This document shows, one piece after another, positions 993-32,375 of a stretch of DNA of 53,826 bases. Under the pieces are notes generated by a model. That model was not told where the DNA came from. It worked only from the letters and a program-made list of their open reading frames with translations, and ran no database searches. A program made the position numbers and the translations under genes. Source of the stretch: Nitrospirota bacterium (GTDB lineage Bacteria > Nitrospirota > UBA9217); contig JAOUEV010000019.1 in the NCBI GenBank assembly GCA_029858565.1, positions 1 to 53,826 of the forward strand, written 5' to 3'. Every line of letters starts with the position of its first letter. The first letter of the stretch is position 1.

Positions 993-2330
993 TCACCGTG
1001 AATATTTTTTCTCTCCATGGCATCCCGGAAGGCACGCCCCCCCGTTCTTCACAGGCACGAAGTTCATGGGCATGTTCCAGCCGCTGAACAGGACCCCTTG
1101 CTTCACATGCTTGTACTGTCCGCTGTCTGCATGCACTTCATGACATGCCCTGCAGGTACGTCCCTTCCCGACCTTGTTGACATGAACGAAATGAAGATTC
1201 CTCTCGCCGTCGCGAAAGCCCGTTGCGACCTTTGTCTTCTGTTCAGTAAATGCCGTCTTGTCATGACAGGAGAAGCACAATGCATATTTTCCATCGGCAT
1301 ATGTCGTATAGAATTCACTGGGATAGTACTGGGTCAGTATCCTCCAGAAATTGGATCCGTGAGGATTGTGACAGGAGATGCAATCACCGCCCTTGATGGG
1401 GCCGTGGGCGTTCTTGTTCTGGTCAAAGAGAGCCTTCATGTCCATGATCTTGCCCCGGCCGGTCTCAAGCTCCTTGTTATGACAGGCCAGACACAGCGCC
1501 ATAGGCGATGTCAGGAGCAGTTTCGACTGATCGGAGAAGTGGGGATCATGGCAGTTCTTGCAGCTTTTCTGATCTATCATGGGTCCATGTTTCGTGAGCG
1601 ACCGCTGGCGTGCCATTGCCTCGTTCGGATGGCAATTCGCGCAGAGGTCGGGCACAGCAGCGCTCAACATGGCCGGAGTTTCGGAACCGTGAGGACTGTG
1701 GCATTGCACACAGGACTGCTTCACCGGATAATGGCCCACCTTTTTCGTTTTGAGCCCTTCCTCCTTGTCCGGATGGCACTGGAAACACAAGGCGTTGCCG
1801 TCGGCCATGAGGCGGTTCGGAAAATCGCTCTGATGATTGTCGTGACAGCCGGAACAATCTCCTCCGGCAACCGGCGGATGCATGACCTTGTGTTTCACGA
1901 TCGAGTCGGGATGGCACTGAAAACAGATGTCCGGCATTGCCGCTTTGAGCATGCCTTTGTTCGGTGATTGGTGCGGATTATGACAGGACGTACAGTCGCC
2001 GCCCATGATCGGGGCATGTACGACCTTTTTCACGTTCTTGGGCTCATGGCACATTGCGCAGAGTTCCGAACCCTGCTGTGAAAGGGTGATAACGAGGTTG
2101 TTGGGATGCTTGGTCTTCTTTTGCGGATCATCCGCGACCTGGTGGCAGGTCGTACACATGCCTTCCTTCACCGGATTATGTACGAACTGTTCCTTTCCCA
2201 TCGTGGGATGACAGACGGCGGTGACACATCCTTCCGTCTGAGCCGGTGTCGGAGTGGCCCCGGGAGCCCATGCCAGGAAGACGCTTCCGGCGAAGAACAA
2301 CAGCAGCGACCATCGATTCCTCATGTTCAT
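993..2330 (-). CDS. Periplasmic multiheme cytochrome c with paired-CXXCH repeats (13 CxxCH plus CX4CH and CX3CH)
   Basis: Signal peptide; repeated H.P...C..CH.PH...L....LC..CH units; GAGGAGAGG RBS directly before ATG 2330. Confidence 0.9.
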   Translation of the reverse strand: MNMRNRWSLLLFFAGSVFLAWAPGATPTPAQTEGCVTAVCHPTMGKEQFVHNPVKEGMCTTCHQVADDPQKKTKHPNNLVITLSQQGSELCAMCHEPKNVKKVVHAPIMGGDCTSCHNPHQSPNKGMLKAAMPDICFQCHPDSIVKHKVMHPPVAGGDCSGCHDNHQSDFPNRLMADGNALCFQCHPDKEEGLKTKKVGHYPVKQSCVQCHSPHGSETPAMLSAAVPDLCANCHPNEAMARQRSLTKHGPMIDQKSCKNCHDPHFSDQSKLLLTSPMALCLACHNKELETGRGKIMDMKALFDQNKNAHGPIKGGDCISCHNPHGSNFWRILTQYYPSEFYTTYADGKYALCFSCHDKTAFTEQKTKVATGFRDGERNLHFVHVNKVGKGRTCRACHEVHADSGQYKHVKQGVLFSGWNMPMNFVPVKNGGACLPGCHGEKKYSR

Positions 2331-2533
2331 CCTCTCCTCGACACGAAAGGTAACAGCCCAAGACGAACAAGGCATGTCCAGCGGGGACATCGTTCACCCA
2401 GCCCGTGAACATACCGGTTTCCCAGCTGTTTTCCCGGCCGGACCGATTGCATGACCTGATTGCTGAACATCTTCTGGATTGTGTTGCCGGGCCTGTCTCC
2501 GAGCGCTCTCAAAGACAAGATGGGTGTTTGGCC

Positions 2534-2994: not shown

Positions 2995-4659
2995 TTATTT
3001 TGCCGCTGCCGTGCCGCCGCTCAACACAACAGTATAGAATTTACCTGCCGCCACGTCATTGATGCCCGCCACATCCCAGATCCGGACAGGACTCGGTTTA
3101 GGCGGCTGGTTCTTCAGGTCCTTCCCCCACACCCATATCGTACCGTCCCCCATGACCGCGAGAGAGTGATACATGCCCGCGGACACTTTCTTGATGTTCG
3201 CGAGTCCATCGATCCTGAAGGCTGAGCTTCCGTTCGCCGTCTTGTTCCCGAGCTGACTGAACTCATTCCCTCCCCAGGCCCACACACTGCCGTCAGCCTT
3301 AAGCGCAAGCGTGTGGTGAAGACCCGACTGAATATCCATGATGTCGGAGAGACCCTTGACCTGGACCGGTTCCGGGCGGTCGGTCCGCGTTCCGTCGCCC
3401 AGCATGCCATTGATGTTCCACCCCCATGCCCAGACCGTTTTGTCGGACTTTACCGCTACGGTATGATGAAGCCCGGCAGCCACTCCGACAACGCCTGATA
3501 ACGAGGAGACTCGGACCGGGCTGTTCCTGTCCTTCTGTGAGCCATCTCCGAGCTGTCCGTAGACGTTCCTTCCCCACGCCCAGACCGTACCATCAGACTT
3601 CACCGCTACGGTGTGATACATTCCCGCAGCGATCTTTACGATGTCGGATAGACCGCTTACCCTGACCGGAACGTTGCTGTCCTCGGAGTTTCCGTTGCCC
3701 AACTGTCCATAGGAGTTCCTTCCCCACGCCCAGACCGTACCGTTGGACTGCAATGCCACGGTGTGGTACATGCCGGCTGCAACATCGGTCGCCTTCAGCA
3801 GGTCCTTGGCCGCTACCGGAACCCGGCTGTCATCGGTCGTCCCGTTCCCCAGCTGGCCACGATTGTTCCGGCCCCAGGTCCAGACGGAACCATCCGCCTT
3901 GAGCGCGACCGCATGCTCCAGTCCTGCTGATACCTTCACCACGTTCTCGAGACCGCTTACCGGCAGGAAAGCGTCCCGGCCCCCGGTGGATCCGTCGCCC
4001 AGTTGGCCATACTCGTTCATACCGCCGGTCATGACCATGCTGGCCTTGGCAGTTGTCGGCATCCAGCTGCTCCGGACCGGCCAGAGGAAACGGTAATTGC
4101 AGTAGGATATGTAATCCATGATCATTTCACCCGAGGCCATGTCTACGATCCAGATGTAATCGATGATGTCGCGCCCGGTCGACGAGGACCAGTAGAAATG
4201 ATTCTGCACATTCGTGAACGGATGGCCGATCGGAAGTGCTGGATAGAATCTGGACCTGTCCGCCAGCGTCTCTATCTCATTGATCGTTGGAAGACGCCAG
4301 TCGGTGAAACCGAAATTCGGGCGCTTGCCGCTGTTCATCTCCTGCAGGAACTGCTTTGCCCCGTCATAGGGCAGCGGCAAGCTGCTTACATTGGCATCCT
4401 TGATCCATATAAGGCCAGTGTTCTTGTCGAGGATTGCCCCTTCATTCTCAGCGCCATATCGCGCGTTCATCTGCGCTGGAGCTTTGTCTCCCTTGCCCGG
4501 AGAGTCCCTGTCCGGGGCTGACGGATCTGACCCGGCAGTTTCCTTTGCCGCGGCCTTTTTGTCCTTTACGGAAGTTTTTTTCGCAGGAGCCGCCAGAACA
4601 TCCGGTTGGATCGACAGAACCACCAGGATCATCAAGAAACCAGCCAAGGCTTTTCGCAT
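2995..4659 (-). CDS. Secreted DUF1566 (Lcl C-terminal-like) plus RCC1-repeat beta-propeller protein
   Basis: D..TGLIW, GFTDWRLPTINE and YWSSS motifs, followed by about 7 AG..H.VA...DGTVWAWG.N..GQLG repeats. Confidence 0.85.
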   Translation of the reverse strand: MRKALAGFLMILVVLSIQPDVLAAPAKKTSVKDKKAAAKETAGSDPSAPDRDSPGKGDKAPAQMNARYGAENEGAILDKNTGLIWIKDANVSSLPLPYDGAKQFLQEMNSGKRPNFGFTDWRLPTINEIETLADRSRFYPALPIGHPFTNVQNHFYWSSSTGRDIIDYIWIVDMASGEMIMDYISYCNYRFLWPVRSSWMPTTAKASMVMTGGMNEYGQLGDGSTGGRDAFLPVSGLENVVKVSAGLEHAVALKADGSVWTWGRNNRGQLGNGTTDDSRVPVAAKDLLKATDVAAGMYHTVALQSNGTVWAWGRNSYGQLGNGNSEDSNVPVRVSGLSDIVKIAAGMYHTVAVKSDGTVWAWGRNVYGQLGDGSQKDRNSPVRVSSLSGVVGVAAGLHHTVAVKSDKTVWAWGWNINGMLGDGTRTDRPEPVQVKGLSDIMDIQSGLHHTLALKADGSVWAWGGNEFSQLGNKTANGSSAFRIDGLANIKKVSAGMYHSLAVMGDGTIWVWGKDLKNQPPKPSPVRIWDVAGINDVAAGKFYTVVLSGGTAAAK

Positions 4660-5035
4660 AGTATCCACAACCTTCCGTTGTCTCAATTATAATATCGAAC
4701 GCTGCTTTAAATTAAATACGTGGCCTATTGTAGCCAAAGCTATTTTGCTTGTAAAGTATTACTTGGCACGCGACTGCCGGCCTAATGTGATTTTGAGCTC
4801 ATTGGGAAGTAAGTCTCTCAAAATAATTCCACTTTACAATCAATGCAGGGTTATGCTACTCTACGTACGGACATCAGGAACATATTCACTATTGAGCGGT
4901 AATCAACAACAAATGAGCGTATCCGCTCATTATTTTTATGCATTCGTTTTCTAGATAACCTAAAAAAATCAATACGCTTTGTAATAGCGATACAATTTAT
5001 TTTGGTTTTTGAAGGTATAGTAATTGCATAAATCA

Positions 5036-5143: not shown

Positions 5144-6559
5144 ATGCTACGAAATGTCGGTCTTGTTGCGGCAATAGGGATCCTGGCAGTTATGATCGCT
5201 CTGGTTGCAGGGCCGGCGCAGATCGCGTCGGCTGAAGTGAACGATGACTATGCTCTCAAGATCTCCCTGGAGAACCAGATGGAGAGAAAGCTCAAGCAGG
5301 TCATTGTCGAGATCACTGGCACTGACAAGGTCGTGATCTTCGTGAACGCCGAGCTGGTATCCAAGGGCGGTGACCGGGGAAAGATCGAAAAGAAAGCCGA
5401 TGCTCTTGTCCTGCCGGGAGTTCCGGCGAAAAAAGAATTCGGGACCGGCCAGTCCTCGGAGTTGATGCTTCCCGGCTCGGGCAAATACTCGGTCAATAAG
5501 ATCATCCTTTCCATCTGGATCGACAGCAGCGTTCCGGGATCGATCGTCGACCTGATCCAGGACATCGCCAAGAACGTGATCGGTTTCAGCCAGACCCGGG
5601 GCGACCAGATCAACGTGAAAAAAGTGGATTTCGAGTCCAAGGGCTTCTTCCGCACCCTCTTCGCCTTCCCGAACTTCCTGTGGCTGATACTTACCATCGT
5701 CGGCGGTTTCATGCTCGTGACCGTCGGCATGTTCTTCATGGACCCGCTCAAGAAAGTGGTCCCGGCCTTGAAGGATATCGACTGGCCTCTTATTCGCGGC
5801 ACCGGCCAGGCAACGGCGGTCGAGCGAACAACGACCTTTGAGCGCGAGGTCATCTCCGGCGGTGCCGCTCAGCAGGCGGTTCAGTCGCTGGCGCCGCAGG
5901 ACGAAGGGCTTCCTTTCTCGTTCGTCCGCGAACGCGACATCCCCGGCCTGGCGTTCCTGTTAAAGGACCGGACGCCGCAGGACATTGCTATCGCCGTCAA
6001 TTATCTCGATCCAACGTTGTCAATGCGCCTGCTCGAGCGCTTTCCCAAGGAAAAGCAGGTCGAAGTTGCGATCGTTCTCGGTAAAGAAGAGATCAATCCG
6101 GAAAAGGTCACCGCGCTCGAGGAACTGGTCAAGAGCAAGCTGTCCTATGTCGTGGGCGGCGAGAACAAACTGGTCATGCTCCTGGATATGACCAATGAGG
6201 ACGTGCGCGACAAGGTCGTGAAGGCCATGGAGGCAAAGGACGGTCAGGCAGGATCACGTCTTAAGCAGCGGATCAAGTCCCTGGAAACGATCCTCGCCGA
6301 AATGCCGGCCCCGGGCATCCAGACCCTTTACCGCAACATCGACACCACGCTCTTTGCCCAGATACTCAAGTCGTCACCCGATGACATCCAGCAAAAGGTG
6401 ATTTCCTCGCTCAGCACCGGCGCCGCAGAACGGCTCAAAGAGGAGATGCAGCTCAGCCGTACCCTCTCCTTGACACGACTCGCCAGGGAGCGGCAGAACC
6501 TGATGGTCCTGGTCCGGAAGCTGATCAGCGAAGGCATTGTGGAGGTTGAGAACAGCTAA
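5144..6559 (+). CDS. FliF RBM3-like ring domain fused to FliG middle and C-terminal domains
   Basis: Signal peptide; LE..ME.KL...I..I.G...V...VNAEL and IAKNVIGFSQTRGDQINV (FliF C-terminal ring motif); one TM at about aa 178-198; then PFSF, PQDIA, GG linker and LSTGAAERLKEEM, VRKLISEGIV (FliG). Confidence 0.8.
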   Translation: MLRNVGLVAAIGILAVMIALVAGPAQIASAEVNDDYALKISLENQMERKLKQVIVEITGTDKVVIFVNAELVSKGGDRGKIEKKADALVLPGVPAKKEFGTGQSSELMLPGSGKYSVNKIILSIWIDSSVPGSIVDLIQDIAKNVIGFSQTRGDQINVKKVDFESKGFFRTLFAFPNFLWLILTIVGGFMLVTVGMFFMDPLKKVVPALKDIDWPLIRGTGQATAVERTTTFEREVISGGAAQQAVQSLAPQDEGLPFSFVRERDIPGLAFLLKDRTPQDIAIAVNYLDPTLSMRLLERFPKEKQVEVAIVLGKEEINPEKVTALEELVKSKLSYVVGGENKLVMLLDMTNEDVRDKVVKAMEAKDGQAGSRLKQRIKSLETILAEMPAPGIQTLYRNIDTTLFAQILKSSPDDIQQKVISSLSTGAAERLKEEMQLSRTLSLTRLARERQNLMVLVRKLISEGIVEVENS

Positions 6560-6560
6560 T

Positions 6561-7343
6561 ATGGCAAAAACAAACAGCCAAATAGATAAAATGACCATTA
6601 TCGGGCTCGTCGCGATCCTGCTGACGATCCTGTACGTCCTTGCCGTTGGGAACATCCTGCACATGCTCTTCAACCCGCTGGCGCTGATCATCGTATACGG
6701 CGGAACGTTCAGTGCGACGCTGATAGCCTACCCCTGGTCGGTCATCAAGGAGATCGCCCCGTCGCTCCGCATCATGCTGTTCCCGAGCAAGCATTCGGAA
6801 CAGGATATGGAGGAGATGATCGCCACCCTTGCAACCCTCGCTGAAAAGGCGCGCCGGGACGGCATTGAAAGCCTGCAGGCCGAGATCCCGAAGATCACCG
6901 ACAAATTCCTGGTTCACGGCGTCCAGATGCTGGTGGATGGCCTGGAACACGACGTCATCAAGGACAATCTGAGCCGGGAGATATTCTACACCCGTCACAA
7001 CCAGCAGAAGGTCTCCGGGGCCTTCCGGACCATGGCCACGGTCGCTCCCATCTTCGGACTGCTGGGCACACTCATGGGCATCGTTGACATGCTCAGGAAC
7101 CTGTCCAATCCGACCAGCATGGGCGCCGCCATGTCCAACGCGGTGACCGCAACGTTCTACGGCATCTTCTCGGCGAATGTGTTCATCCCGATCGCAACCA
7201 AGCTCACGGACCATAGTGAACGGGATATCATTAACAAGGAAATGATCGCCGAGGGCGTCATGGCGATCCAGGAAGGTGATGTTCCCCTGATCGTACGGAA
7301 GAAACTGACCGCCTTCATCATGGCGCACATGCGGCAGAAGTAA
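6561..7343 (+). CDS. motA: MotA/PomA-family stator A subunit
   Basis: GGTFSATL, ARRDGI, GVQMLVDG, APIFGLLGTLMG, TATFYG and EGVMAIQEG motifs. Confidence 0.9.
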   Translation: MAKTNSQIDKMTIIGLVAILLTILYVLAVGNILHMLFNPLALIIVYGGTFSATLIAYPWSVIKEIAPSLRIMLFPSKHSEQDMEEMIATLATLAEKARRDGIESLQAEIPKITDKFLVHGVQMLVDGLEHDVIKDNLSREIFYTRHNQQKVSGAFRTMATVAPIFGLLGTLMGIVDMLRNLSNPTSMGAAMSNAVTATFYGIFSANVFIPIATKLTDHSERDIINKEMIAEGVMAIQEGDVPLIVRKKLTAFIMAHMRQK

Positions 7344-7372
7344 TACCCCGATGCTCAAGTCCAGGACAGGTA

Positions 7373-8050
7373 ATGTCAGAAATAAGCGATAAAGATAAAG
7401 AGAGCGGCAACATCTGGTTGATCATCTTCTCGGATATCACGACCAACCTCATGCTGTTCTTTCTCATGCTCTTTGCCATGACCCGCATGACCTCTGCGGA
7501 CAAGCAACTCCTGGTGGCCGGCATGGAAAGCACGGTCATCAATGAAGCTTCCCGCAAGCAGGTAGAGATGGAGCGCCAGGCAAAGAAGCAGCGTGAGGAA
7601 GAGGCCATCAAGCGTCTTCAGCAGGCAGTCAGCGAAGGCCGGCTTGCCGGAAAAACCGCTATCAATGTCACCGACAAATCGGTCAATATCGCCTTGAATC
7701 CGGAGTCATTCTTTTCCATCGGAAGCGCCAAGCTCAACCCCGGAACGATCAATGTGCTTGAGGACCTGGTGACGCTCATAGAATCCTTTCCCAATGATAT
7801 CATCATTGAAGGTCATACGGACCCGACGCCGGTGCGGGGAGGCGCTTATCGCTCGAACTGGGAACTCTCGATCGCACGGGCTGTCGGCGTCGTGAACTTC
7901 TTCACTGCATCAGGGCTGAATCCCAAACAGCTTGTAGCCGCAGGCTACGGCGAGTTCCATCCCGCTTATGCAAACGATACGGAAGCGAACCGCGCCCGGA
8001 ACAGGCGCATCGAGATCACGCTGGTCCGCCAGCCGGGAGAGATGCTGTGA
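7373..8050 (+). CDS. motB: MotB-family stator B subunit with OmpA-like domain; catalytic Asp present
   Basis: WLIIFSDITTNLMLFF TM helix; EGHTD, SNWELSIARA, GYGEFHP, NRRIEI. Confidence 0.9.
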   Translation: MSEISDKDKESGNIWLIIFSDITTNLMLFFLMLFAMTRMTSADKQLLVAGMESTVINEASRKQVEMERQAKKQREEEAIKRLQQAVSEGRLAGKTAINVTDKSVNIALNPESFFSIGSAKLNPGTINVLEDLVTLIESFPNDIIIEGHTDPTPVRGGAYRSNWELSIARAVGVVNFFTASGLNPKQLVAAGYGEFHPAYANDTEANRARNRRIEITLVRQPGEML

Positions 8051-8715
8051 TATCGGCGCTCCAAAGATTCGTCCGGTATACCGAAGAGCACATGGAAGAG
8101 ACCGAGCTCTGGATGCTGCCCTACAGCACCCTGATGCTCACCCTGGTCATCCTGTTCATCATGTTCTACGCCTTTTCCCAATCCCAGTCCGTCGAGTACG
8201 AGACCGCCCTGTCCGACCTTGCCTCGACCAATCCCGACGATCCACGTGTCAAACAGCTGAAGCAGGAGATCGCCCTTGCACAGAATATCCGCGACTTCAT
8301 ACAGAAGAACAATCTTGCCGGCAAGATCCAGGTAATCATGACCCCCCACTCCATCAAGATCAAGATGGAGAGCCTCGCGCTGTTCGACAGCGGAAGCGCC
8401 GATCTGAAACAGGACAGCAGGATGTTTCTTGACCATTTGCACGAGCAGCTCAAACCGCTGAGCAACCGTGTCATTGCCGAGGGTCACACCGACAATGTGC
8501 CGATCCACACTGCCCAGTTCAACTCGAACTGGGAGCTTTCTTCGGCCCGGGCCTTCAGCGTCATTTACTATTTCATCAACAAGGGGCTCGCGCCGGAACG
8601 CCTGGTCGCGCATGGGCTCGGTGAATACCGGCCTGCGTTCTCGAACGAGTCCGAAACCGACCGGGCGAAGAACCGCCGGATCGAGATCACGATTGTAAGA
8701 GGAGTCTCCGGGTGA
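8047..8715 (+). CDS. motB: Second MotB-family protein; Thr at the catalytic Asp position
   Basis: WMLPYSTLMLTL TM helix; EGHTD, SNWELSSARA, NRRIEI; GTGA overlap with the preceding motB. Confidence 0.85.
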   Translation: MISALQRFVRYTEEHMEETELWMLPYSTLMLTLVILFIMFYAFSQSQSVEYETALSDLASTNPDDPRVKQLKQEIALAQNIRDFIQKNNLAGKIQVIMTPHSIKIKMESLALFDSGSADLKQDSRMFLDHLHEQLKPLSNRVIAEGHTDNVPIHTAQFNSNWELSSARAFSVIYYFINKGLAPERLVAHGLGEYRPAFSNESETDRAKNRRIEITIVRGVSG

Positions 8716-10007
8716 AAAAGGCCGTACTTATCCTGTCGTGCATCCTGGTCCTCACCGGCAGCGCGGAAGCGCTGACCCCCAAGCAGGTAGAGCGCGTCGA
8801 TCAGCTCAAAAAGGATGTCGTATCCCTTTTTCGTGAGCGCAAGTTCGACCAGGCAGTGCCGCTGCTGAATGAGGTGCTTTCCATCGATCCTCTGGACAAG
8901 ACCGCGACCCGCTACCTTGCTCTGGCCCGCCAGCAGAGCATGGAAACCTATTGCAAGGATGCGGCAGACGCTTTCCAGAACGAGGACTATGCCAAGGCCA
9001 TTGAGACCTGGGACCGCCTGCTCAAAATGAATCCCGACGACCGGCGCTTCGCGAATCTCATCGAGACAACGAAGAATCTCATTTCGGACAAGGTCACCGG
9101 CGAAATGTTCGAACGGGCAGAGAAATTCGTGAATGAAGGCGACTACAAGGCCGCGGTCAATGAGCTGGAGAAGATCCTCGCCGTCCGTCCCTACGACACA
9201 CGGGCTCGCGCGCTTTACAACAACGCGAAAAGCAATGTCGTCGATGCCCGCACGAAGAAACATTACGACCAGGCCGAGACGTACATGAAGGAAAAACAGT
9301 ACGACCGCGCGATCGAAGAATGGAAGCGAGTGCTGGAAATCGACAATACCCAGGAGGCGGCTTCCCGCTATATCGCCACCGCCGTCAGAGAAAAGATGGG
9401 GAGTCTCTATGGCGACGCGCGGCAGGCCTACGAGCGGGGCGACTATCTTACGGCACGGGACCTTTACAACAGGATCCTTGCCGACAATCCCACGGACCTT
9501 GACGTGAAAACGATCGTTTCCCGCCTCGACGACGTGGCCAAGGTCGCCCTGAAGATCGATGATAAAAGCCAGGCCGGAGACATGATGCGGAAGGCTATGG
9601 CCCTGTATATAGCTGTTGACGGCAACCGCAAGGCCTCAATGGCGGCAGCCTGGTATGCTTTCCAGCTTAACCCGAATTCGCTGACCATCGCCGTCAAGGG
9701 ATTTCTCGAACTGAAATATGCATCGATCCTGAGCACCATGGAGGCACCGGTCGGCGATATGAACATCATCGATCAGTACCTTTTTGCGGCCCTGAACAGG
9801 ATCTACGAAGGACGATACGACATCGCCATTCAGGCCTGCACCATTGTCATCGAACTGCATCCGAACAACGTGCTGGCATGGAAACGGCTCGGTTCAGGCT
9901 ATTATGCGATCGGCAAGAAGGATAAAGCGAGAGATGCATGGGAGCGCGCACTCAAGATCACACCCGATGATGCCGAGCTTAAGCAGTTCCTGCGTCAGAC
10001 AAAATGA
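8712..10007 (+). CDS. Secreted tetratricopeptide-repeat protein
   Basis: Signal peptide (AEA); multiple A...W..VL.I.P-type TPR helical pairs; GTGA overlap with the second motB. Confidence 0.85.
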   Translation: MKKAVLILSCILVLTGSAEALTPKQVERVDQLKKDVVSLFRERKFDQAVPLLNEVLSIDPLDKTATRYLALARQQSMETYCKDAADAFQNEDYAKAIETWDRLLKMNPDDRRFANLIETTKNLISDKVTGEMFERAEKFVNEGDYKAAVNELEKILAVRPYDTRARALYNNAKSNVVDARTKKHYDQAETYMKEKQYDRAIEEWKRVLEIDNTQEAASRYIATAVREKMGSLYGDARQAYERGDYLTARDLYNRILADNPTDLDVKTIVSRLDDVAKVALKIDDKSQAGDMMRKAMALYIAVDGNRKASMAAAWYAFQLNPNSLTIAVKGFLELKYASILSTMEAPVGDMNIIDQYLFAALNRIYEGRYDIAIQACTIVIELHPNNVLAWKRLGSGYYAIGKKDKARDAWERALKITPDDAELKQFLRQTK

Positions 10008-10045: not shown

Positions 10046-11521
10046 ATGAATACGAAGATACTTATAACGACGATCAACATGACCATTCTCTGCATCATTG
10101 CAGCATTATGCGCTGCACCGACCCCGGCCCTTGCCGCCCAGGACCAGGAGTGCGGTAAATGCCACGACGCAATGAGCAGGGGCAAAGTCCTGCACCCGGC
10201 GCTCAAGAAGGGCTGCACTGCCTGTCATACCGCATCCCACCCCGGGACGCCGGGCAAGGACAAGGCGGTCCTTTCGCTTCGTTCCGAGCAGCCCGACCTT
10301 TGTTACGACTGTCACAGCCGGAACCTGTTCCTTCGGAGATACCAGCACAAGCCCGCGGTCTCGGGAAAATGCACGGCCTGTCACAATCCGCATTCTTCGA
10401 ACAACATGTATCTGCTCACCACGTCAATGCCCGATCTGTGCTGGAAGTGCCACGACAAAAAGATCGTCACGAAACAAACGACCCATTTCCCCTCGACTGC
10501 CGGCCTCTGCTCGGCCTGCCATGACGCGCACAGCTCCGACAGCCATGAGAAACTGTTGACGTCCAACATGCCGGAATTATGCTATAAATGCCATGACAAG
10601 GCCAGCATCGGCGGCATGCAGAACGTCCACCAGCCGGTCATCTCAGGGAAATGTACCGCCTGCCACAATCCTCATTCGCAGGTGGCGAAGAACCTCCTGG
10701 CCGCAGACGGCGCGGCACTCTGCTATACCTGTCACGATAAGAAGACCTTTACCGACGGCATCGCCCACACGCCCGTGGAACAGGGCGGCTGTCTTGGCTG
10801 CCACGCCCCCCATCAATCGAGGTCCGAGAAACTGCTTCTTGCGAAGCAGCCTGACCTCTGTTTCCTCTGCCATGAGAAGAAGTCGTTCACCGGCGAAAAA
10901 TACGGCCACAAGCCCGTTACCGGCGGTCGTTGCACGACCTGTCACCGTCCGCATGCCGCCAAGGCAAAGAATCTGCTTACAAAATCGACTCCAGGCATCT
11001 GCTTTGAATGCCATATGACCGAGGAGCTCGGCGGACGGGAAAAACACGGACCCTTCAAGATCGGCATGTGCAACAGCTGTCATAAATCCCACCAGAGCAA
11101 CACGTCGAAACTGCTGATCGGAAAGACCCCTGACCTCTGTTTCACCTGCCACAGCACGGAGGATTTCAAGAACAAGGTGGTCCACAAACCGGTCGCAGAC
11201 GGAAAATGCTACGACTGTCACGGGATCCATACGACCCCCTTCAAGAACCTGAGCAAAGCGGATGGCAATGAATTGTGCCGAAAATGCCACCAGGACGTGT
11301 TCCGCGGCTCCCACCCGAATACGCAGCTGCCTGCAGACCTGCGATCAAAGAAACGGGGCACGACCACCGGTCATCCCCTGGATAAGGTGGATGATCCGAA
11401 ACGACCGGGTAAAAGTATGGCGTGTATTAGCTGCCATAACCCGCATAGCGCTGAATGGAAAGGCCTGTTCCGCTATAAAGCGGAGAAACCCCAGGACCTT
11501 TGTCAGCACTGCCACAGATAG
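10046..11521 (+). CDS. 19-heme periplasmic cytochrome c with paired-CXXCH repeats
   Basis: Signal peptide (ALA); 19 CxxCH counted; regular two-heme repeat of about 47 aa. Confidence 0.9.
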   Translation: MNTKILITTINMTILCIIAALCAAPTPALAAQDQECGKCHDAMSRGKVLHPALKKGCTACHTASHPGTPGKDKAVLSLRSEQPDLCYDCHSRNLFLRRYQHKPAVSGKCTACHNPHSSNNMYLLTTSMPDLCWKCHDKKIVTKQTTHFPSTAGLCSACHDAHSSDSHEKLLTSNMPELCYKCHDKASIGGMQNVHQPVISGKCTACHNPHSQVAKNLLAADGAALCYTCHDKKTFTDGIAHTPVEQGGCLGCHAPHQSRSEKLLLAKQPDLCFLCHEKKSFTGEKYGHKPVTGGRCTTCHRPHAAKAKNLLTKSTPGICFECHMTEELGGREKHGPFKIGMCNSCHKSHQSNTSKLLIGKTPDLCFTCHSTEDFKNKVVHKPVADGKCYDCHGIHTTPFKNLSKADGNELCRKCHQDVFRGSHPNTQLPADLRSKKRGTTTGHPLDKVDDPKRPGKSMACISCHNPHSAEWKGLFRYKAEKPQDLCQHCHR

Positions 11522-11559
11522 TTCGGCATGATGGTTGCTCAGGAACAGCCAATCTGAGG

Positions 11560-11587
11560 TTGACTCCCGGGCTGAAATAGGTATAAT
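11560..11587 (+). promoter_or_regulatory. Sigma70-like promoter for the c7-type cytochrome pair
   Basis: TTGACT-N16-TATAAT, 40 nt upstream of the ATG, which has an AAGGAG RBS. Confidence 0.55.
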
Positions 11588-11627
11588 GCATGAGAAATCA
11601 GTTTGTTTGCCGGAAGGAGAACACGAG

Positions 11628-12419
11628 ATGAGATTCAAGGCTTTGATTGTCCTGCTGGTCGTTGCCATCACCCTGCTCGCTTCCATTGCCCTTGCCACGA
11701 ACTTTGGCACCAAGAAACGGATGCCCCGCCCCCAGGAGTTCGGCAATGTGATCATCAACAATTACTCGGAGAAGAACAATATCGCGCCGGTGGTGTTCAA
11801 GCATTGGATACACCGGACCAAGTATACCTGCAGGGTCTGTCACGTGGACGTCGGTTTTGCCATGGAAGCGGGCGGCAGCGATATCAAGGAAGAGGATAAC
11901 AAGAACGGACTGTATTGCGGCTCCTGCCATAACGGCAAGGAAGCTTTCGCGGCCACGGCACGGGAAAAGCTCGTCACCGAGGTCCAGAATTGCGATCGGT
12001 GCCATTCCTACGGCAAAGAGGTCAAGAACCAGAAGGATTTCAATGAATATCTCAAGGACTTCCCCCAGGCCAGGTTCGGCAACCGGATCGACTGGATGAA
12101 GGCCGAGGCTACGGGCAGGATCAAGCTCAAAGACCTGGTCGAGGGAATTTCGATGAAGCGCCAGGCCATCGCAGCGCCCAAGGACTTTGATATCAAGTCA
12201 ACGATCCTCGGCATGCCGGACATCATCTTCTCGCACAAGATCCATGCGGAGATCAACGGATGCGAGCTCTGTCATCCCGAAGTGTTCGGTGCCAAAAAAG
12301 GTGTGACCAAGTACTCCATGCAGGACATCTTTGCCGGGAAGTACTGCGGTTCCTGTCATGCCAAGGTCGCGTTTCCGTTCTATGACTGCCAGCTGTGCCA
12401 TCTGAAAGAGGTGTATTGA
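11628..12419 (+). CDS. Hexaheme cytochrome with two c7-type triheme domains
   Basis: PVVFKHWIH...CRVCH, CGSCH, CDRCH and IIFSH..H...CELCH, CGSCH, CQLCH; signal peptide. Confidence 0.9.
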   Translation: MRFKALIVLLVVAITLLASIALATNFGTKKRMPRPQEFGNVIINNYSEKNNIAPVVFKHWIHRTKYTCRVCHVDVGFAMEAGGSDIKEEDNKNGLYCGSCHNGKEAFAATAREKLVTEVQNCDRCHSYGKEVKNQKDFNEYLKDFPQARFGNRIDWMKAEATGRIKLKDLVEGISMKRQAIAAPKDFDIKSTILGMPDIIFSHKIHAEINGCELCHPEVFGAKKGVTKYSMQDIFAGKYCGSCHAKVAFPFYDCQLCHLKEVY

Positions 12420-12446
12420 TCCGATCAGCCTGATGGAACATCCTGT

Positions 12447-13187
12447 ATGCACAGTGCGGTACTTTATCTCGCGATCCTTATGGCCGGCAGCAACTTCGAC
12501 GGGGTGTGGAAATTCCCTCCTCCACCCCCGCCGGAGCAGTACGGGAATGTTCTGATCACTCGTCTTACATCCAAGAGCACGCACCCGCCCGTGGCTTTTT
12601 CTCATTGGCTTCACCGGCGTTATTTCACCTGCAGGGTATGCCATTTCGAGCTTGGTTTCGCGCTCAAAACAAATACCACCGAGATCACGGAAGCAAAGAT
12701 CCGCAAAGGCGAGTATTGCGGGGCCTGTCACAATGATCGGGTCGCCTTTGGCGTGAGCGAAGGCACCTGTACCATGTGCCATACCGGAAAGGTCAGTTCC
12801 TCGGATGGACGTTTTTCAGAACTGAAAGACCTTCCGAAATCACGGTATGGGGACGGTCTCAACTGGGTCAAGGCACTCAGAAAGAACTTTATCCAGCCAA
12901 AGGCCAGTATCCTCGACAGTAAGTATGAATCCATCCCCTTTGACAAGAACCTGCGGCTCGAGCCTGAGTGGGGTCTGATCAAGACAAAAGCGATCTTTCC
13001 CCATGCCAAGCATACGGAGTGGCTCGACTGCGCTGACTGTCATCCCGACATCTTTAACATCCAAAAAAAGGGCACCCGGCACTTTCGCATGGAATATATG
13101 CTCGAAGGAAAGTTCTGCGGCGCCTGCCATCTCACTGTGGCATTCCCCCTCCAGGACTGCAAACGCTGCCATCCTGACCTTGACTGA
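12447..13187 (+). CDS. Hexaheme c7-type cytochrome, paralogue of the upstream gene
   Basis: Six CxxCH in the same layout; shared YG/FG-NV.I and WV/MKA motifs. Confidence 0.9.
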   Translation: MHSAVLYLAILMAGSNFDGVWKFPPPPPPEQYGNVLITRLTSKSTHPPVAFSHWLHRRYFTCRVCHFELGFALKTNTTEITEAKIRKGEYCGACHNDRVAFGVSEGTCTMCHTGKVSSSDGRFSELKDLPKSRYGDGLNWVKALRKNFIQPKASILDSKYESIPFDKNLRLEPEWGLIKTKAIFPHAKHTEWLDCADCHPDIFNIQKKGTRHFRMEYMLEGKFCGACHLTVAFPLQDCKRCHPDLD

Positions 13188-13421: not shown

Positions 13422-14789
13422 TCAGATCAATCCGAATCGTTTCATCCTGCGGCGGAATGCGTCCCGGGGCATTTTTAGCAGCTGTGATGCCCTGGTCTGG
13501 TTCCCGCCTGCCATTTCGAGCGCTTTCTTGACCAGGGCATTCTCCACTTCCTCTATAGATATGCCGCTTTCCGGTATCGTCAGGCAATCCAGCGAAACGG
13601 GTGTTAGCGAACTATCCATGGGCGCGGCATGCTGTTCAAGAATTTCCGGTGACAGATGCTCCGGCATGATCTCTTTATCGATCTCAAAGATCATGGCTCG
13701 CTCGATCACATTCTTAAGTTCACGGACATTGCCGGGCCACGGATAGGACAGAAATACCTGTTCGGCCTCTTTGGATATGCCCTGAACGCTTTTATGGCAT
13801 TCTCTGTTGAAGTGATCTGTAAAATGTCGGGCCAGCAAAAGTATGTCACGTCCACGGTCACGAAGCGGAGGAAGCATGATCGGGACGACCTGCAGCCGAT
13901 AATATAGGTCCTTGCGAAAACGCCCTTCGTTCATGGCGCGGGAAAGATCCTGGTTCGTGGCAGATATCACACGAACATCCACTTTGATATCCTTGACACC
14001 GCCGATACGTCGAAAGGATTTTTCTTCAAGTATCCGCAGCAGCTTTGCCTGCATGCTGATATCCATATCGCCGATCTCATCCAGGAACACGGTCCCGCCA
14101 TCGGCCAGTTCGAAAAGTCCCTTCTTTGCAGCTTTTGCATCGGTGAATGCACCCTTTTCATGACCCATCAACTCGCTTTCCAGCAGCGTCAACGGCAGTG
14201 CAGCGCAGTTGATAGCCATAAAAGGTCTTTCTGCGCGCAGACTTCCCGAATGGACCGCTTTTGCGACCAACTCCTTGCCTGTTCCACTTTCTCCCTGGAT
14301 AAGCACGGTCGTTGCGTCACTCTTCGCGATCTTCGCGATAAGGTCCTTCACCCGGAGCATCATGTCCGTCTCTCCGATGATGGCGTCGACTTTCCCCCTG
14401 AGCTGCTTGACCTGGGACCTGAGGGAACCCGCTTCGAGGGCCTTTCGGATAACGAAGGTTATCTCCTCCAGATTAAAGGGCTTGCTGATATAGTCATAGG
14501 CGCCAAGCTTCATCGCCTTCACAGCGGTCTCCACCAGGCCATAGGCCGTGATCATAATGACCATGATGCCCCGCTCAGGCACATTCAATTTTTCCAGCAG
14601 TTCGAGACCGGTCATTTCAGGCAGCCTGTTATCCAGGAGGAGCAGATCAGGAGCTTCCTCATTGATAAGCTGGAGCCCTTTTTCCGCCGAGTCAGCGGTC
14701 ACTACTTCGTACCCCTCCCGCACAAGATGCTGCTCGAGTGTCCACCGAATTAGCTTTTCATCATCAATAACAAGGATCTTATATGCCAT
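13422..14789 (-). CDS. NtrC-family sigma54-dependent response regulator
   Basis: Receiver domain; GESGTGKE; GAFTDA; FLDEIG; WPGNVREL; Fis-type HTH. Confidence 0.95.
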   Translation of the reverse strand: MAYKILVIDDEKLIRWTLEQHLVREGYEVVTADSAEKGLQLINEEAPDLLLLDNRLPEMTGLELLEKLNVPERGIMVIMITAYGLVETAVKAMKLGAYDYISKPFNLEEITFVIRKALEAGSLRSQVKQLRGKVDAIIGETDMMLRVKDLIAKIAKSDATTVLIQGESGTGKELVAKAVHSGSLRAERPFMAINCAALPLTLLESELMGHEKGAFTDAKAAKKGLFELADGGTVFLDEIGDMDISMQAKLLRILEEKSFRRIGGVKDIKVDVRVISATNQDLSRAMNEGRFRKDLYYRLQVVPIMLPPLRDRGRDILLLARHFTDHFNRECHKSVQGISKEAEQVFLSYPWPGNVRELKNVIERAMIFEIDKEIMPEHLSPEILEQHAAPMDSSLTPVSLDCLTIPESGISIEEVENALVKKALEMAGGNQTRASQLLKMPRDAFRRRMKRFGLI

Positions 14790-14791
14790 GC

Positions 14792-16282
14792 TTAAATACT
14801 CCCTGTCACAGATTCCTGTTTATTTGGGGAAGGAAGCACGATCGTGAACACGGAACCTTTTCCCGGTGCACTCTGCACGCTGATCTCACCATTATGCTGT
14901 TCAACAATACGCTGGGTGATCGACAGCCCCAGTCCGGTGCCCTGCTGCCGCGTCGTGAAGAAGGGGCTGAAGATCCTTCCCAGGTTTTCCTGATTGATGC
15001 CTTCACCGGAATCGGAGAGGCCGATCCGGATCGCGCCGCCGCCATCCTTGGTCACATCCACATTCGTTTCAACAATAAACCGTCCGCCCTGGGGCATTGC
15101 CTTGATCGCGTTCAAGGCGATGTTGAGCAGTGCCTGTTGCATCAGATCAGGGTCCAGGACCAGCCAGGGCAGCCCAGCGGTCATTTTTCTCTCAGACGTT
15201 ATACCATGCTTGGCGAACTGGGGCGCCAGAAAGTCGAGCAGTCGGCTCAGCAGTTCGTTCACATCCACGAGGGTCATTTTTGGCTCAGGAGGCCGCGCGA
15301 ACGAAAGCAGGTTCCTTACAGCCTTATCCATGCGCTCGACCTGGGAAAGCACTTCATCCAGTACCGCCCGTTTGGGATCACCGATGGGGATATCACCCTT
15401 CAGGACCTGGATCACCCCGGCAATACCCGCAAGGGGATTCTTGATCTCATGGGCAATTCCTGCCGCCATTTCACCGATAGAGGCCAGTCGGTCCGCCCGT
15501 TTCATCTGCTCATAGTGATACCGTTCCACGCGGCGGCGTGCCCGTTCGAGCTTTGTCAGCAGGGAATTAAAAGCCTCCGCAAGCCTGCCGATGTCATCCT
15601 TGCTCTTTACCTGCGCTCGGGCTTCAAGCCCGCGCTCGGCCCGCTCCATTGTATCAATGAGCTCCTGGATGGGCGTGGTCACATAGCGCGTCAGAAAAAG
15701 CGACAAAGATATTGCCAGGGTAGCCGTGATGCCGAACGCCCACAGGATCATGGTCTTGCTGAGCTCCCCGACCTTTTCCTGCGTCTGGGTCATGGACACG
15801 TCCACCGCAAGAACGCCGTTCAATTTCACCGTACTGCCGTGGCATGAATAACACTGCTCGGAATTCTCGATCGGGAACAAGACCGAGAAGATCCCTTCCT
15901 CGCGGCGCTTGATCGGTCGTTTGAACTTCCCTTCGAGGAACCACTTCTGGGTCGCCCCGTCAATGCGTCTGCCGATCTGTCCGCGCTTGGAGGCCTTCAA
16001 GATCACCCCATTGGGGCTGAATATCCTCAGGCCGCGGATATTATGATAGCCGCCCACAGCCTCCAGGATATGCTGGACCTCTCGGCTCTTGCCTGCGACC
16101 ATGGCATTTGAGAGGCTTTTCTCGATCGTATTGGAAATAATGAGGACATTGTCCTCGAGCGCCGACTCCATCTGTCCCTGCTGATAACGGATATTGATCC
16201 ACGTACCAATGCCGATGATCACCGCAAGGATCGCGGAAACGGAAAGAATGATCTTGCTTCTGAGGCTTGAAATGAGGATCAC
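14792..16282 (-). CDS. Sensor histidine kinase with periplasmic CxxCH motif and HAMP domain
   Basis: Two TMs flanking a domain containing CYSCH; HAMP; AHEIKNPL H-box; N, G1, F and G2 boxes. Confidence 0.92.
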
Positions 16283-29633: not shown

Positions 29634-30749
29634 TCAATATGCTACATAATCAACGAGAACGATCATATATTCCTGTGAGGCTTCGCCTCCGTTCCCATCA
29701 CTGACCGAGAGCTTTACCGTAATCTCATTTCTTCCCGTGTACATGACCCCCTTGGGAACGGTCCATTGAATGAGGCCTGTTGATGGATCGATCGTCATGC
29801 CTGACGGTCCCCGTTCCAGCCGGAACTCCAAGTGATCTCCATCGGGATCCCGGGCGGCAACCTGGTAGGTATGCACACCGTTCACAACCGAATCAGGCGC
29901 AGACGACTCAATGACTGGAACAGAGTTGCCGAAACCTGCCGGTTTTGAAACGACCGGGCCTGCTGCCGCGGTTCCGTCGAAACAGACCACTGCTACGGTG
30001 ACGATATCCTGTTTCCGGAGCCCCGTTGTCTGAAGCGAGGCGTTCGGCGATGCGGGCCCGGATACACGTCCGTTTACGCTCCATTGGTACTCACAGGACA
30101 ATGCGTCGCCGTCCGGATCACTGGCTGCTGAAGCCGCAGACAGCGGCGATCCCAGGACGGCGTTCTGCGGTTCGATCGTGACCGACGAGACGATCGGCGG
30201 TAGATTGCCGACGGTCAGCGGCTGCGTTGCATATGTTTCACCGTTCCCGCCGTCATCGGAAGGCGTTATTTCCACGCGAACCACATCACCTTTTCTGAAC
30301 TTCCCTGTCGGCAGCGTGCTGTCCGGCCCCTCCTGCGCGTATCCCTCGTTCACATACCAGCGGAACACATAGGAGATGGGATCTCCTTCCGGATCAATAG
30401 CGCTGTATTTCAGGTTCAGGGCGGTTTCCGCTGTCGGCTCGGCAGGCGCAATCTCCGCCATGGTCACTGCCGGCGGTTTATTTTCGGTCTGTCGCGCGGG
30501 GAGGGGTTCCTGACGGGTCTGCGGTTGCGGCGAGGGCCGGCCCGTTTCCATTCCGGCCTCCCTCCCTTGCCGAGCGGCAACGACCACGATGGTGACGGCG
30601 AGTGCGATCAAGAGAACGAAAAGCGAGATTACCTTGGGCGTAAGCCGGATCTTTGCGACACCGCCGCTGATCTGGATATCTCCGCCAGCCTCTTTGCGGG
30701 CAACATAAATCCTTTTCCTTTTAGCCGGACCGGTACGTGTTTTTGCCAT
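29634..30749 (-). CDS. Membrane-anchored protein with tandem Ig-like domains
   Basis: One TM; repeated N.PP...A.DPDGD...Y.W.VN; C-terminal putative Ig domain GPSGMTIDPSTGLIQW. Confidence 0.8.
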   Translation of the reverse strand: MAKTRTGPAKRKRIYVARKEAGGDIQISGGVAKIRLTPKVISLFVLLIALAVTIVVVAARQGREAGMETGRPSPQPQTRQEPLPARQTENKPPAVTMAEIAPAEPTAETALNLKYSAIDPEGDPISYVFRWYVNEGYAQEGPDSTLPTGKFRKGDVVRVEITPSDDGGNGETYATQPLTVGNLPPIVSSVTIEPQNAVLGSPLSAASAASDPDGDALSCEYQWSVNGRVSGPASPNASLQTTGLRKQDIVTVAVVCFDGTAAAGPVVSKPAGFGNSVPVIESSAPDSVVNGVHTYQVAARDPDGDHLEFRLERGPSGMTIDPSTGLIQWTVPKGVMYTGRNEITVKLSVSDGNGGEASQEYMIVLVDYVAY

Positions 30750-30775
30750 GCAATCCTTTTATGATCGTCCGTTCA

Positions 30776-31723: not shown

Positions 31724-32375
31724 TCGTATTGGTTGCGCTCGACGACAGAATTTCCAGAGCATATAATGATGATATTTCCTGCATCTCCAGTTCGCCGGAA
31801 TTCGATACGACTCCGCTCTTGATTCTCACACCTTCGCCGACGCCTGCGCTAGTATTGCCCTGGACCGTATGGACAATCTTGCTGTACACTACATATTTCT
31901 GTCCGCTGCCCAGTTCCATCCGTATATCATAGGTCCCAGCATCATCAGGTTTTATCGTCAGGCTCGTATCACATCCGGTCCAGTTCGCGCTTCCCAGCAT
32001 GATCTTTGTTCCGAAGCCACTGTAAGCTGTGCCCGAGTCAGGCACACTTTGGCAAGTAACGCTTGTTCCAATAACAAAATTCATACCGACTGCATTCAGA
32101 TTCGCCTGAAACGCATTCAATTTTATCGAATCATTCTGCAGTTCGACGACCTGCCGAACGGCTTCCCATCCGCCGAGTGCCGCGTCCTTGGCAGTACGGT
32201 AACGCTTCTGCAAACCGCTCATTTGAGTGCTGACGGTTACCAGGTACAGCATGGTCGTCATGATCGCCAGAACAACGGCCGAGAGAACGACCACGACGAT
32301 CAACACCGCTCCCCGTTCGGAACCGGCCCCGTTCCCGTACCGTTTCCAGAACTTCCTGATTTTGACTTTCTTCAT
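31686..32375 (-). CDS. pilX: Type IV minor pilin, PilX-like
   Basis: ERG|AVLIVVVVL class III signal lacking E5; position in the cluster; start uncertain (32375 or 32390). Confidence 0.75.
   Translation of the reverse strand: MKKVKIRKFWKRYGNGAGSERGAVLIVVVVLSAVVLAIMTTMLYLVTVSTQMSGLQKRYRTAKDAALGGWEAVRQVVELQNDSIKLNAFQANLNAVGMNFVIGTSVTCQSVPDSGTAYSGFGTKIMLGSANWTGCDTSLTIKPDDAGTYDIRMELGSGQKYVVYSKIVHTVQGNTSAGVGEGVRIKSGVVSNSGELEMQEISSLYALEILSSSATNTNERAKFSVLYQY

Follow-up and report, generated by a model that had tools for sequence, protein, structure and literature searches.

Models of 5:2 motors (MotAB, ExbBD, TolQR, and Zorya) assume two equivalent B-subunit aspartates that fire in turn, and the alternating-site model is one drawn from the stator structures of 2020. 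In E. coli, the residue concerned is D32 of MotB, which is essential, and mutants of D32 are dominant. As the B dimer is a homodimer, the need for both aspartates within one unit is hard to test. Here, we describe a locus in which a B subunit with the channel aspartate and a paralogue without it are encoded in tandem. The locus lies in a 53,826-nucleotide stretch of DNA from a Nitrospirota bacterium (GTDB lineage Bacteria; Nitrospirota; UBA9217), which comprises positions 1 to 53,826 of the forward strand of contig JAOUEV010000019.1 (NCBI GenBank assembly GCA_029858565.1) and is hereafter called the window. We consider the chances about even that the pair belongs to a separate, widespread rotor-stator module in which the asymmetry of the stator is built in.

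The nearest gene arrangement that has been described is that of Aquifex aeolicus, where a single motA is likewise followed by two tandem motB genes, motB1 and motB2 (PMC4525482). As far as the published account of that system goes, the Aquifex proteins are unlike those described here, in that their transmembrane (TM) regions are 97% identical, both have the aspartate, and the difference between them lies in the periplasmic part; moreover, they are part of a genuine flagellum, and either one is functional with MotA when made into a chimera (PMC4525482). The second relative is the AglR/AglQ/AglS gliding motor of Myxococcus, which is likewise a non-flagellar candidate for a 5:2-type motor with one A-type and two different B-type subunits (PMC9389320). 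The pages of that review which deal with the gliding motor leave the question of an AglQ/AglS heterodimer open and give its stoichiometry as not known. They also indicate that, unlike the Asp-less protein of our locus, AglQ and AglS are TolR-like and both keep the aspartate, that the A subunit is TolQ-like, and that there is no FliG-like rotor. With regard to the B-subunit aspartate itself, the review cites Zhou et al. (1998; in PMC9389320).

The tandem MotB pair

The pair occupies the third and fourth places in a row of five co-directional, closely packed genes at positions 5144-10007, which encode, in order, a FliF-FliG fusion protein, MotA, MotB1, MotB2, and a TPR-repeat protein. MotB1 (7373-8050, + strand; 225 amino acids [aa], ATG start) is a stator B subunit with the channel aspartate D21, and MotB2 (8047-8715, + strand; 222 aa, GTG start) is a stator B paralogue with a threonine, T28, at the position of that aspartate. 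A first-pass annotation, made by a model that saw the DNA letters and a list of open reading frames (ORFs), had reported a W-x5-D pattern in MotB1 and a W-x5-T pattern in MotB2. We find both as described: W15 of MotB1 is followed six residues on by D21 (codon at 7433-7435), and W22 of MotB2 (TGG, 8110-8112) is followed six residues on by T28 (ACC, 8128-8130). The Asp codon of MotB1 is, however, GAT and not the GAC that had been given; the T28 codon is two base changes away from GAY. When aligned with the solved MotB/PomB chains by HMMER (PDB ID codes 6ysf/8ucs, 6ysl, and 8bri), D21 and T28 both fall on the channel aspartate. The ion-binding TM aspartate by which a MotB is defined (E. coli D32) is thus present in MotB1 as D21 and absent from MotB2, where T28 takes its place.

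In other respects MotB2 is complete. Its TM helix, plug, and OmpA-like domain are all kept, as had been claimed for the helix and the OmpA-like domain; the Pfam scores for MotB_plug (PF13677, cut-off 24) are 36.8 bits for MotB1 and 30.8 bits for MotB2, and those for OmpA (PF00691, cut-off 27.2) are 63.4 and 68.3 bits, respectively. The NRRIE and GHTD motifs of the OmpA-like domain are invariant in both MotBs, as judged from 30 diverse members of each. MotB2 is therefore MotB-like in fold, yet it lacks the aspartate that defines a MotB. The translational coupling proposed for the two genes holds at this locus, with the stop codon of motB1 overlapping the GTG start of motB2 in a GTGA at 8047-8050. 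A second GTGA, at 8712-8715, joins the stop codon of motB2 to the GTG start of the TPR gene. Orthologues whose sequences open with MISVL or MSVL support the GTG start of motB2.

In the 30 diverse members of each type, the invariant residues of the helix of MotB2 are W22, M23, P25, M30, L33, and F37, and the invariant residues of MotB1 are W15, D21, T24, N25, F29, and F30. The differences between the two helices are constant, as would be expected if they occupied non-equivalent positions of a single assembly. The helix of MotB2 is more conserved than a plain membrane anchor would need, and its six invariant residues suggest that it still packs against MotA. No further acidic residue was found within the MotB2 helix among its orthologues, the 30 diverse members included. 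In a two-chain structure prediction, MotB1 and MotB2 reached an ipSAE score of 0.59 (0.58-0.61 between runs), as opposed to 0.00 for the best of three controls, which lends weak support to a contact between them; the runs shared at least 95% of their contacts, and the predicted local distance difference test score (pLDDT) of the partner was at least 78. The calibration of this procedure has to be kept in mind: among 157 solved complexes, 116 reached its mark, as did two of 215 mismatched pairs, and scores of 0.60 or less were seen in only 18 of the 157 solved complexes and in both of the mismatches that passed.

Conservation and selection of the Asp-less copy

The first-pass annotation had allowed that orthologues of MotB2 might normally keep the aspartate, or that the gene might be under relaxed selection, and had proposed a check across homologous operons. 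That check turned up no orthologue with Asp: among the best 120 homologues of MotB2 (48-100% identity), the position is occupied by Thr in 115 and by Asn in three, while the remaining two are incomplete entries without the segment, so that Asp is found in 0/120. At the Nitrospirota genome loci, MotB1 has Asp in 27 of 27 locus ORFs (16 distinct) and MotB2 has Thr in 29 of 29 (17 distinct), always encoded by ACC. Eight Nitrospirota loci (75-82% identity) share the order RCC1-like gene (on the opposite strand), fusion, MotA, MotB1, MotB2, TPR protein, and three cytochromes; two of the eight come from long-read assemblies and are frameshifted, and the other frames are intact. In distant Nitrospirota families (G138, G256, and G273; 47-53% identity), the five-gene core is kept and the cytochromes are not. 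The spread of the cassette within the phylum is patchy. Strong matches to MotB2 (E < 1e-50) occur in 17 of 301 Nitrospirota genomes, and matches to the fusion (E <= 1e-25) in 17 of 401, which are the same 17 genomes; 13 of the 63 genomes of the host's own family have it.

Selection was estimated from the ratio of non-synonymous to synonymous substitutions (dN/dS), calculated pairwise by the Nei-Gojobori method for Nitrospirota orthologues of more than 65% identity. The median dN/dS was 0.112 for MotB2 (12 sequences, 61 pairs) and 0.092 for MotB1 (12 sequences, 60 pairs), compared with 0.076 for MotA (18 sequences, 146 pairs), 0.100 for the TPR protein (12 sequences, 55 pairs), and 0.113 for the fusion (four sequences, five pairs). 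These ratios are rough, with synonymous sites near saturation (median proportion of synonymous differences, pS, ~0.6), but they are still far below 1 and equal for the two paralogues, and relaxed selection on MotB2 is not seen. The Asp-less MotB2 is a conserved, selected gene and not a chance feature.

The FliF-FliG fusion, MotA, and the TPR protein

The first gene of the cassette (5144-6559, + strand) encodes a rotor-like protein of 471 aa, as identified by Pfam, AlphaFold, Foldseek, and phmmer. Its parts are arranged in the order N-terminal TM, periplasmic RBM3-like domain, second TM, and cytoplasmic FliG middle and C-terminal (MC) domains, with Pfam scores of 56.9 bits for FliG_C, 34.4 bits for FliG_M, and 27.2 bits for YscJ_FliF_C. 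In the AlphaFold model (mean pLDDT 76.8), an N-terminal helix is followed by an alpha-beta-beta-alpha-beta unit (residues 34-161) that contains a disordered insert; a long helix (177-210) comes next, and then the helical FliG part (263-462). By Foldseek, the C-terminal half matches FliG MC with an E-value of 1e-9, and the N-terminal half matches the FliF S-ring/RBM3 with E-values of 6e-4 to 3e-3 and TM-scores (target) of 0.5-0.58; phmmer finds FliG of Thermotoga maritima (1lkv) with an E-value of 3.8e-18. Neither Pfam, nor the model, nor Foldseek revealed a FliG_N domain, the N-terminal half being a membrane/periplasmic FliF-like part instead, and Pfam did not detect PF01514 (RBM1/2), in keeping with the single RBM-like unit and two helices that are seen. 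Because of these Pfam and fold matches, we regard the product as a natural FliF(RBM3)-FliG(MC) fusion without FliG_N.

MotA (6561-7343, + strand) is 260 aa long when read from the ATG at 6561; an in-frame TTG upstream, at 6537, is also possible as a start. It scores 85.2 bits for MotA_ExbB and 45 bits for MotA_N, and its closest solved relatives are the flagellar MotA/PomA proteins (E-values from 1e-41 to 1e-36; 9lu9, 1.3e-41; 6ysl, 1.5e-39; also 8ucs and 8bri). By its sequence, MotA is thus of the flagellar type and not of the TolQ/ExbB type. There is a single motA per cassette. In 65 distinct MotAs of the system, TM3 and TM4 are near-invariant, with P163 and P210, which we take to be the equivalents of E. 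coli P173 and P222, invariant. No conserved acidic residue that could replace the lost aspartate was found in TM3 or TM4 of these 65 sequences. D176 in TM3 was considered as a compensating residue and rejected, as this position is not conserved (Q in 43, D in 16, and E in 4 of 65).

In the flagellar motor, MotA and FliG meet through two charge pairs, which in E. coli are MotA R90 with FliG D288-D289, and MotA E98 with FliG R281. Residue equivalences at this interface were taken from pairwise HMMER alignments. The basic pair R98/R99 of MotA is R or K in 63 of 65 and 61 of 65 sequences, respectively, and the acidic E434 of the fusion, which stands next to E/Q433, is E in 27 of 30. Taken together with the second pair, which is uncharged on both sides (see below), the MotA-fusion interface looks co-adapted, as far as these alignments allow.

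The fifth gene (8712-10007, + strand) encodes a TPR-repeat protein of 431 aa, assigned to TPR families by Pfam, which is the fifth conserved member of the cassette. It probably has an N-terminal signal sequence and possibly a lipobox. The gene lies beside the cassette in all Nitrospirota loci and is found upstream or downstream of it in metagenome loci that are sufficiently long.

The cassette in genomes with and without flagella

The host genome (3.9 Mb, 144 contigs) is rated 100% complete. Its only MotB_plug matches are MotB1 and MotB2, and its only FliG_C match is the fusion gene; two further MotA_ExbB matches elsewhere in the genome are taken as putative TolQ/ExbB genes. There is no canonical FliF, and searches of the host genome for Flagellin_N, FHIPEP (FlhA), FliMN_C, and YscJ_FliF gave no match, while each was detected in the control genomes every time. 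The flagellar genes that would be expected in the same genome as a MotB are thus lacking in this host. Five other carriers of the cassette were compared. Three of them (G111, G256, and G138) have no FlhA, and the fusion is their sole FliG_C match; the other two (G005 and G273) have FlhA and, elsewhere in the genome, a second FliG of the canonical kind, as part of a complete-looking flagellar set. As the cassette occurs in genomes both with and without flagella, it is independent of flagella, and it is near certain that it constitutes a separate system rather than a fragment of a flagellar regulon. The MotB pair is therefore not a flagellar stator with a spare MotB; both the non-flagellar context and the FliF-FliG partner upstream had escaped the first-pass annotation.

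Origin and spread of the Asp-less copy

A tree was built from 48 MotB sequences, comprising 20 first copies, 21 second copies, and seven ordinary MotBs; the rows were picked by hand, one per lineage, with near-identical loci left out, and the quick IQ-TREE run was supported by the Shimodaira-Hasegawa-like approximate likelihood ratio test (SH-aLRT) only. All 21 second copies are grouped together by a branch with an SH-aLRT of 99, and the 41 MotBs of the system are split from the seven ordinary ones with an SH-aLRT of 93. Given that all second copies form one clade, the aspartate was lost a single time, in the distant past, and has stayed lost since. Asn is spread over the whole of the second-copy clade, and Thr arose at least three times within it: in Nitrospirota, in L073/L087, and in L115. 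The clade's only Asp is found at locus L093, in a copy that arose very recently by duplication of the Asn one. The 59 distinct second copies have N in 46 (AAT in 35, AAC in 11), T in 12 (ACT in nine, ACC in two, ACG in one), and D in that one; the second copies of Nitrospirota have ACC in 17 of 17. The codons fit a path from GAY through AAY to ACY, with one step each.

The profile of MotB2 was scored against 1.84 billion representatives and retrieved additional short MotBs in which the Asp position is N, T, or S. It also found relatives with Asp, both of the MotB1 type (W-L-T-I-Y-S-D..TNLMLFF) and of the MotB2 type (W-M-V-P-Y-A-D). The best 120 matches of a profile of the Asn type have N in 84, T in 24, D in nine, and S in two, with one pattern artefact, and those with a named organism are metagenome-assembled genomes of Elusimicrobiota. 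A scan of metagenomes with 14 Asp-less representatives yielded 77 loci. Wherever the contig is long enough, these show a cassette of TPR protein (~700 aa), fusion (~580 aa), MotA, an Asp-bearing MotB, and then an Asn- or Thr-bearing MotB; by our own reading, the fusion and motA lie just upstream of the MotBs wherever the contig reaches. There are 46 non-duplicate loci with two readable MotBs, of which 35 are D-N, eight are D-T, one is D-N-D, and two are pattern artefacts (the true order in L060 is D-N, and L111 has its first gene truncated where the contig stops). In several other lineages the gap between motB1 and motB2 is -8 to +25 nucleotides. As a control, 23 ordinary motAB loci were inspected. 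They have one MotB each, except L021 and L023, which have two, each beside its own MotA, and Asp is present in every ordinary MotB with a readable helix. A lead, and no more than that, comes from a language-model atlas, in which clusters combining FliG_C, FliG_M, and FliF_C occur in Elusimicrobiota, Cloacimonadota, Bdellovibrionota, Bacteroidota, and Thermodesulfobacteriota.

Some loci are exceptional. Except at L108, MotB2 is invariably accompanied by one motA and an Asp-bearing MotB. At L108 (1-8543), the TPR protein, fusion, MotA, a kinase, and a regulator are encoded on one strand, while the Asn-type MotB is convergent on the other strand; this MotB has 303 aa and a TPR-like tail of its own. 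L093 (404-2513) has three tandem MotBs, D, N, and D, the third of which is the near-identical recent duplicate of the Asn type and has Asp encoded by GAC, a natural exchange between Asn and Asp in a single lineage. L105 has Y instead of W ahead of Asn. In L059 (6767-12398), the genes directly downstream of the cassette encode a Cache/HAMP kinase, several multi-REC regulators, and a GGDEF cyclase. A separate observation concerns protein P0121 (473 aa), which is MotB-like and has two OmpA-like domains, one before and one after a central Asp-bearing TM helix, a layout as if two MotB halves had been fused head to tail.

A proposed stator with a single ion-binding site

We see roughly equal grounds for and against the proposal that the cassette encodes a free-standing rotor-stator machine, descended from the flagellar motor but working without a flagellum, with a stator of the form MotA5·MotB1·MotB2 that would have a single ion-binding site; for the 5:1:1 composition itself, we put the chance a little better than even. 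The heterodimeric MotA5-B1-B2 stator suggested in the first-pass annotation stands in so far as it fits a conserved, selected Asp-less copy that has one motA and an Asp-bearing partner, whereas the placement of both B subunits in the same ring is what we infer.

In such a machine, the fusion would, by homology, form an inner-membrane ring and present its FliG torque domain to MotA. A MotA pentamer would enclose one MotB1 and one MotB2, and both B subunits would tie the unit to the peptidoglycan through their OmpA-like domains. Only D21 of MotB1 would bind the coupling ion, and the neutral polar residue of MotB2 (Thr here, Asn or Thr in other lineages) would mimic a protonated aspartate, this neutral state being the one that current models let slide past MotA. 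With one ion-gated site instead of two, MotA would turn 72 degrees per ion rather than 36, and the half-step that faces MotB2 would be ungated; according to the part of the review that treats such cycles, a wholly new model would be required for a 5-ion cycle (PMC9389320). The TPR protein would be a periplasmic fifth part. The output would not be swimming, because there is no rod, hook, or export gate. A task in the envelope or in sensing may be proposed from the TPR partner, from the two-component and GGDEF genes in or beside the cassettes of the Elusimicrobiota type, and from the sigma-54 regulator and kinase nearby. A more ambitious picture, which we offer tentatively and think somewhat unlikely as a whole, is that of a widespread flagellum-independent rotary nanomachine with a mini MS-ring/FliG rotor, using five rather than ten ions per MotA revolution for envelope work or mechanosensing wired to two-component and cyclic di-GMP signalling, which would be the first 5:2 motor in nature to have an axle that is obligately heterodimeric and half inactive.

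Several observations weigh against this proposal. B1 and B2 may each form homodimers, and their sharing of one MotA ring goes beyond what was observed. The two-chain prediction cannot tell a heterodimer from homodimers, and the solved MotB dimers may explain why the pair passed. The metagenome loci were fished with Asp-less queries, and the independent facts that they provide are the Asp-bearing partner upstream and the cassette. In six of them (L124, L127-L130, and L132), the motB genes lie ~1.9 kb apart, and translational coupling is therefore not universal; in L130 (5058-6973), a histidine kinase and a CheY-like single-domain response regulator are encoded between them. No Asp-bearing MotB was found in the 8.5 kb of L108, and if the system of that locus works, then it does so without any channel aspartate, or B1 lies elsewhere. 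The third copy of L093 indicates that the position can hold Asp in this lineage. On the rotor side, ring formation by the fusion is argued from fold likeness at modest scores (Foldseek E ~1e-3). Finally, the MotA-FliG contact may differ from the flagellar one, because the second charge pair is not kept: Q106 of MotA, the equivalent of E98, is never acidic in 65 sequences (A in 31, Q in 20, others in the rest), and G426 of the fusion, the equivalent of R281, is Gly in 27 of 30. A conserved E108 of MotA and R430 of the fusion lie near this uncharged pair.

Alternative explanations

Of the alternatives, the one that survives best is that two kinds of stator share one MotA, in which case MotA5·MotB1(2) would conduct and drive, and MotA5·MotB2(2) would serve as a brake, a placeholder, or a passive peptidoglycan-anchored bearing. 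We consider this unlikely, though it has substance, since MotB is normally homodimeric in solved structures, the six loci with ~1.9 kb between the motB genes (and with signalling genes there in L130) show that the two can be separated, and L108 keeps the Asn form only. The Aquifex MotB1 and MotB2, each working with MotA as chimeras in the account available (PMC4525482), offer a precedent. On the other hand, the motB pair is otherwise strictly adjacent, with the genes often overlapping, and both are present in the same 17 genomes. With two neutral residues, a unit would be left without any ion-binding site, and a brake or bearing would have to be reconciled with a MotB2 helix as conserved as the working one and a dN/dS equal to that of MotB1.

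Alternatively, MotB2 might stand outside MotA as a scaffold, anchored in the membrane and bound to peptidoglycan, that keeps the TPR protein or the rotor ring in position, in the manner of the accessory anchors of some flagellar motors. A lost catalytic residue combined with a fully conserved OmpA-like domain is what such a role would leave behind, and both the overlap of the MotB2 gene with the TPR gene (GTGA at 8712-8715) and the TPR-like tail of the Asn-type protein of L108 point the same way. We nevertheless regard a scaffold as improbable, as W-x2-P-Y and the helix that follows are invariant or nearly so across lineages that are 47-50% identical overall, which is hard to explain for a mere anchor, and the plug region still scores above the PF13677 cut-off.

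It is more doubtful still that MotB2 takes part in ion flow by some other chemistry, with Thr or Asn coordinating Na+ or a water chain, or with an acidic residue of MotA as the substitute, so that neither site would be idle. In place of Asp there is always a polar residue (N, T, rarely S), never a hydrophobic one, and the window's MotA does have D176 in TM3; against this, D176 is not conserved and the MotB2 helix offers no other acidic residue. We know of no MotAB/PomAB-type 5:2 motor that works without the B-subunit aspartate, which also counts against such a scheme.

That the cassette is a decaying remnant of a lost flagellum, with MotB2 a duplicate on its way to becoming a pseudogene, would account for the homology of all parts to flagellar proteins in a host without a flagellum, but is already contradicted by dN/dS values of 0.08-0.11 for all five genes, by conservation of the cassette between phylum-level lineages, by its presence beside a complete-looking flagellar set in G005 and G273, and by frames that are intact except in two long-read assemblies, and can hardly be correct.

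Other genes of the window

Divergent from the cassette lies a gene (2995-4686, - strand) for a secreted protein of 563 aa with six RCC1 repeats and an Lcl_C domain, as assigned by Pfam. It is found beside the cassette in loci L007, L008, L011-L014, and L058, and its product has 59% identity to that of a distant complete genome (G256). It was not seen in the Elusimicrobiota-type loci and is a conserved neighbour in Nitrospirota only; its membership in the system is uncertain. Four genes for multihaem c-type cytochromes (Paired_CXXCH_1, cytochrome c7-like) flank the cassette, at 993-2390 (- strand) and 10046-13187 (+ strand). Those at 10046-13187 were considered as parts of the system and rejected, being kept only in close relatives and absent or different in G138, G256, and G273.

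Beyond the cytochromes, positions 13422-16282 (- strand) encode a sigma-54-dependent response regulator (REC, Sigma54_activat, and HTH_8) and a HAMP histidine kinase. A search for sigma-54 promoters (TGGCAC-N5-TTGCW, at most two mismatches) gave 22 matches where 25.3 are expected by chance, and there was no match on the + strand in the 457-nucleotide region upstream of 5144. Further downstream, a cluster at 29634-40091 (- strand) contains an ORF of 1860 aa without a Pfam match (34509-40091, - strand), two proteins with pseudopilin-type N-terminal methylation motifs, and two Big_9/He_PIG proteins, and may encode pilus- or secretion-linked surface proteins.

Comparison with known systems

The full-text literature, subscription-only papers excluded, yielded no account of a MotB paralogue that lacks the aspartate, or of a FliF-FliG/MotAB cassette in the absence of a flagellum. 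The main text of a survey of MotAB evolution in 205 genomes has neither "aspartate" nor "heterodimer" and a single "paralog", and its sole mention of FliG there concerns the flagellar rotor contact (PMC12505986). The available text of a recent preprint deals with the rotation of E. coli MotA5 and not with heterodimers (10.1101/2025.10.28.684902). What the locus offers is a fixed pair, one B subunit with Asp and one with a neutral mimic (Asn or Thr), kept under selection across at least two phyla. It is hence a natural system in which to ask if a unit with one site can turn, what this costs in ions, and which way it goes. The cassette is, moreover, a case of the flagellar rotor-stator core standing alone as a module, with no export gate, rod, or filament, which bears on the origin of the flagellar motor and on other uses of ion-driven rotation.

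The MS-ring protein FliF has RBM1, RBM2, RBM3, and a beta-collar between two TMs, and its ring comprises ~33-34 subunits. Engineered FliF-FliG fusions are functional in Salmonella. The fusion of the cassette resembles the flagellar MS-ring/C-ring rotor (FliF and FliG) in having an RBM3-like fold between two TMs together with the FliG MC domains. It differs in being a natural single polypeptide of 471 aa with no RBM1/RBM2 and no FliG_N, in a genome without FliM/FliN, export gate, rod, or hook. By its molecule name, PDB entry 8z4d contains an engineered FliF-FliG fusion chain, as opposed to the natural one found here.

As for the stator, the flagellar MotA5MotB2 and PomA5PomB2 complexes (6ykm, 6ysl, 6ysf/8ucs, 8bri, and 9lu9) have the same type of MotA and the same TM-plug-OmpA layout, and their aspartate is kept in MotB1. 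In contrast to these, the cassette has two different B subunits, one of them Asp-less, a FliF-FliG partner, no flagellum, and no pair of the E98/R281 type. A likeness to the second copy is found in the MotB D22N/D32N mutants, of which D22N is described as a protonation mimic in the passage of the review that concerns it (PMC9389320). Their Asp to Asn change is of the kind, and affects the position, seen in the majority of second copies (N in 46 of 59 distinct sequences). Those mutants, however, are laboratory-made, with both B subunits changed and the motor dead, whereas the change in the second copies is natural and ancient, is confined to one of two paralogues, and is under purifying selection.

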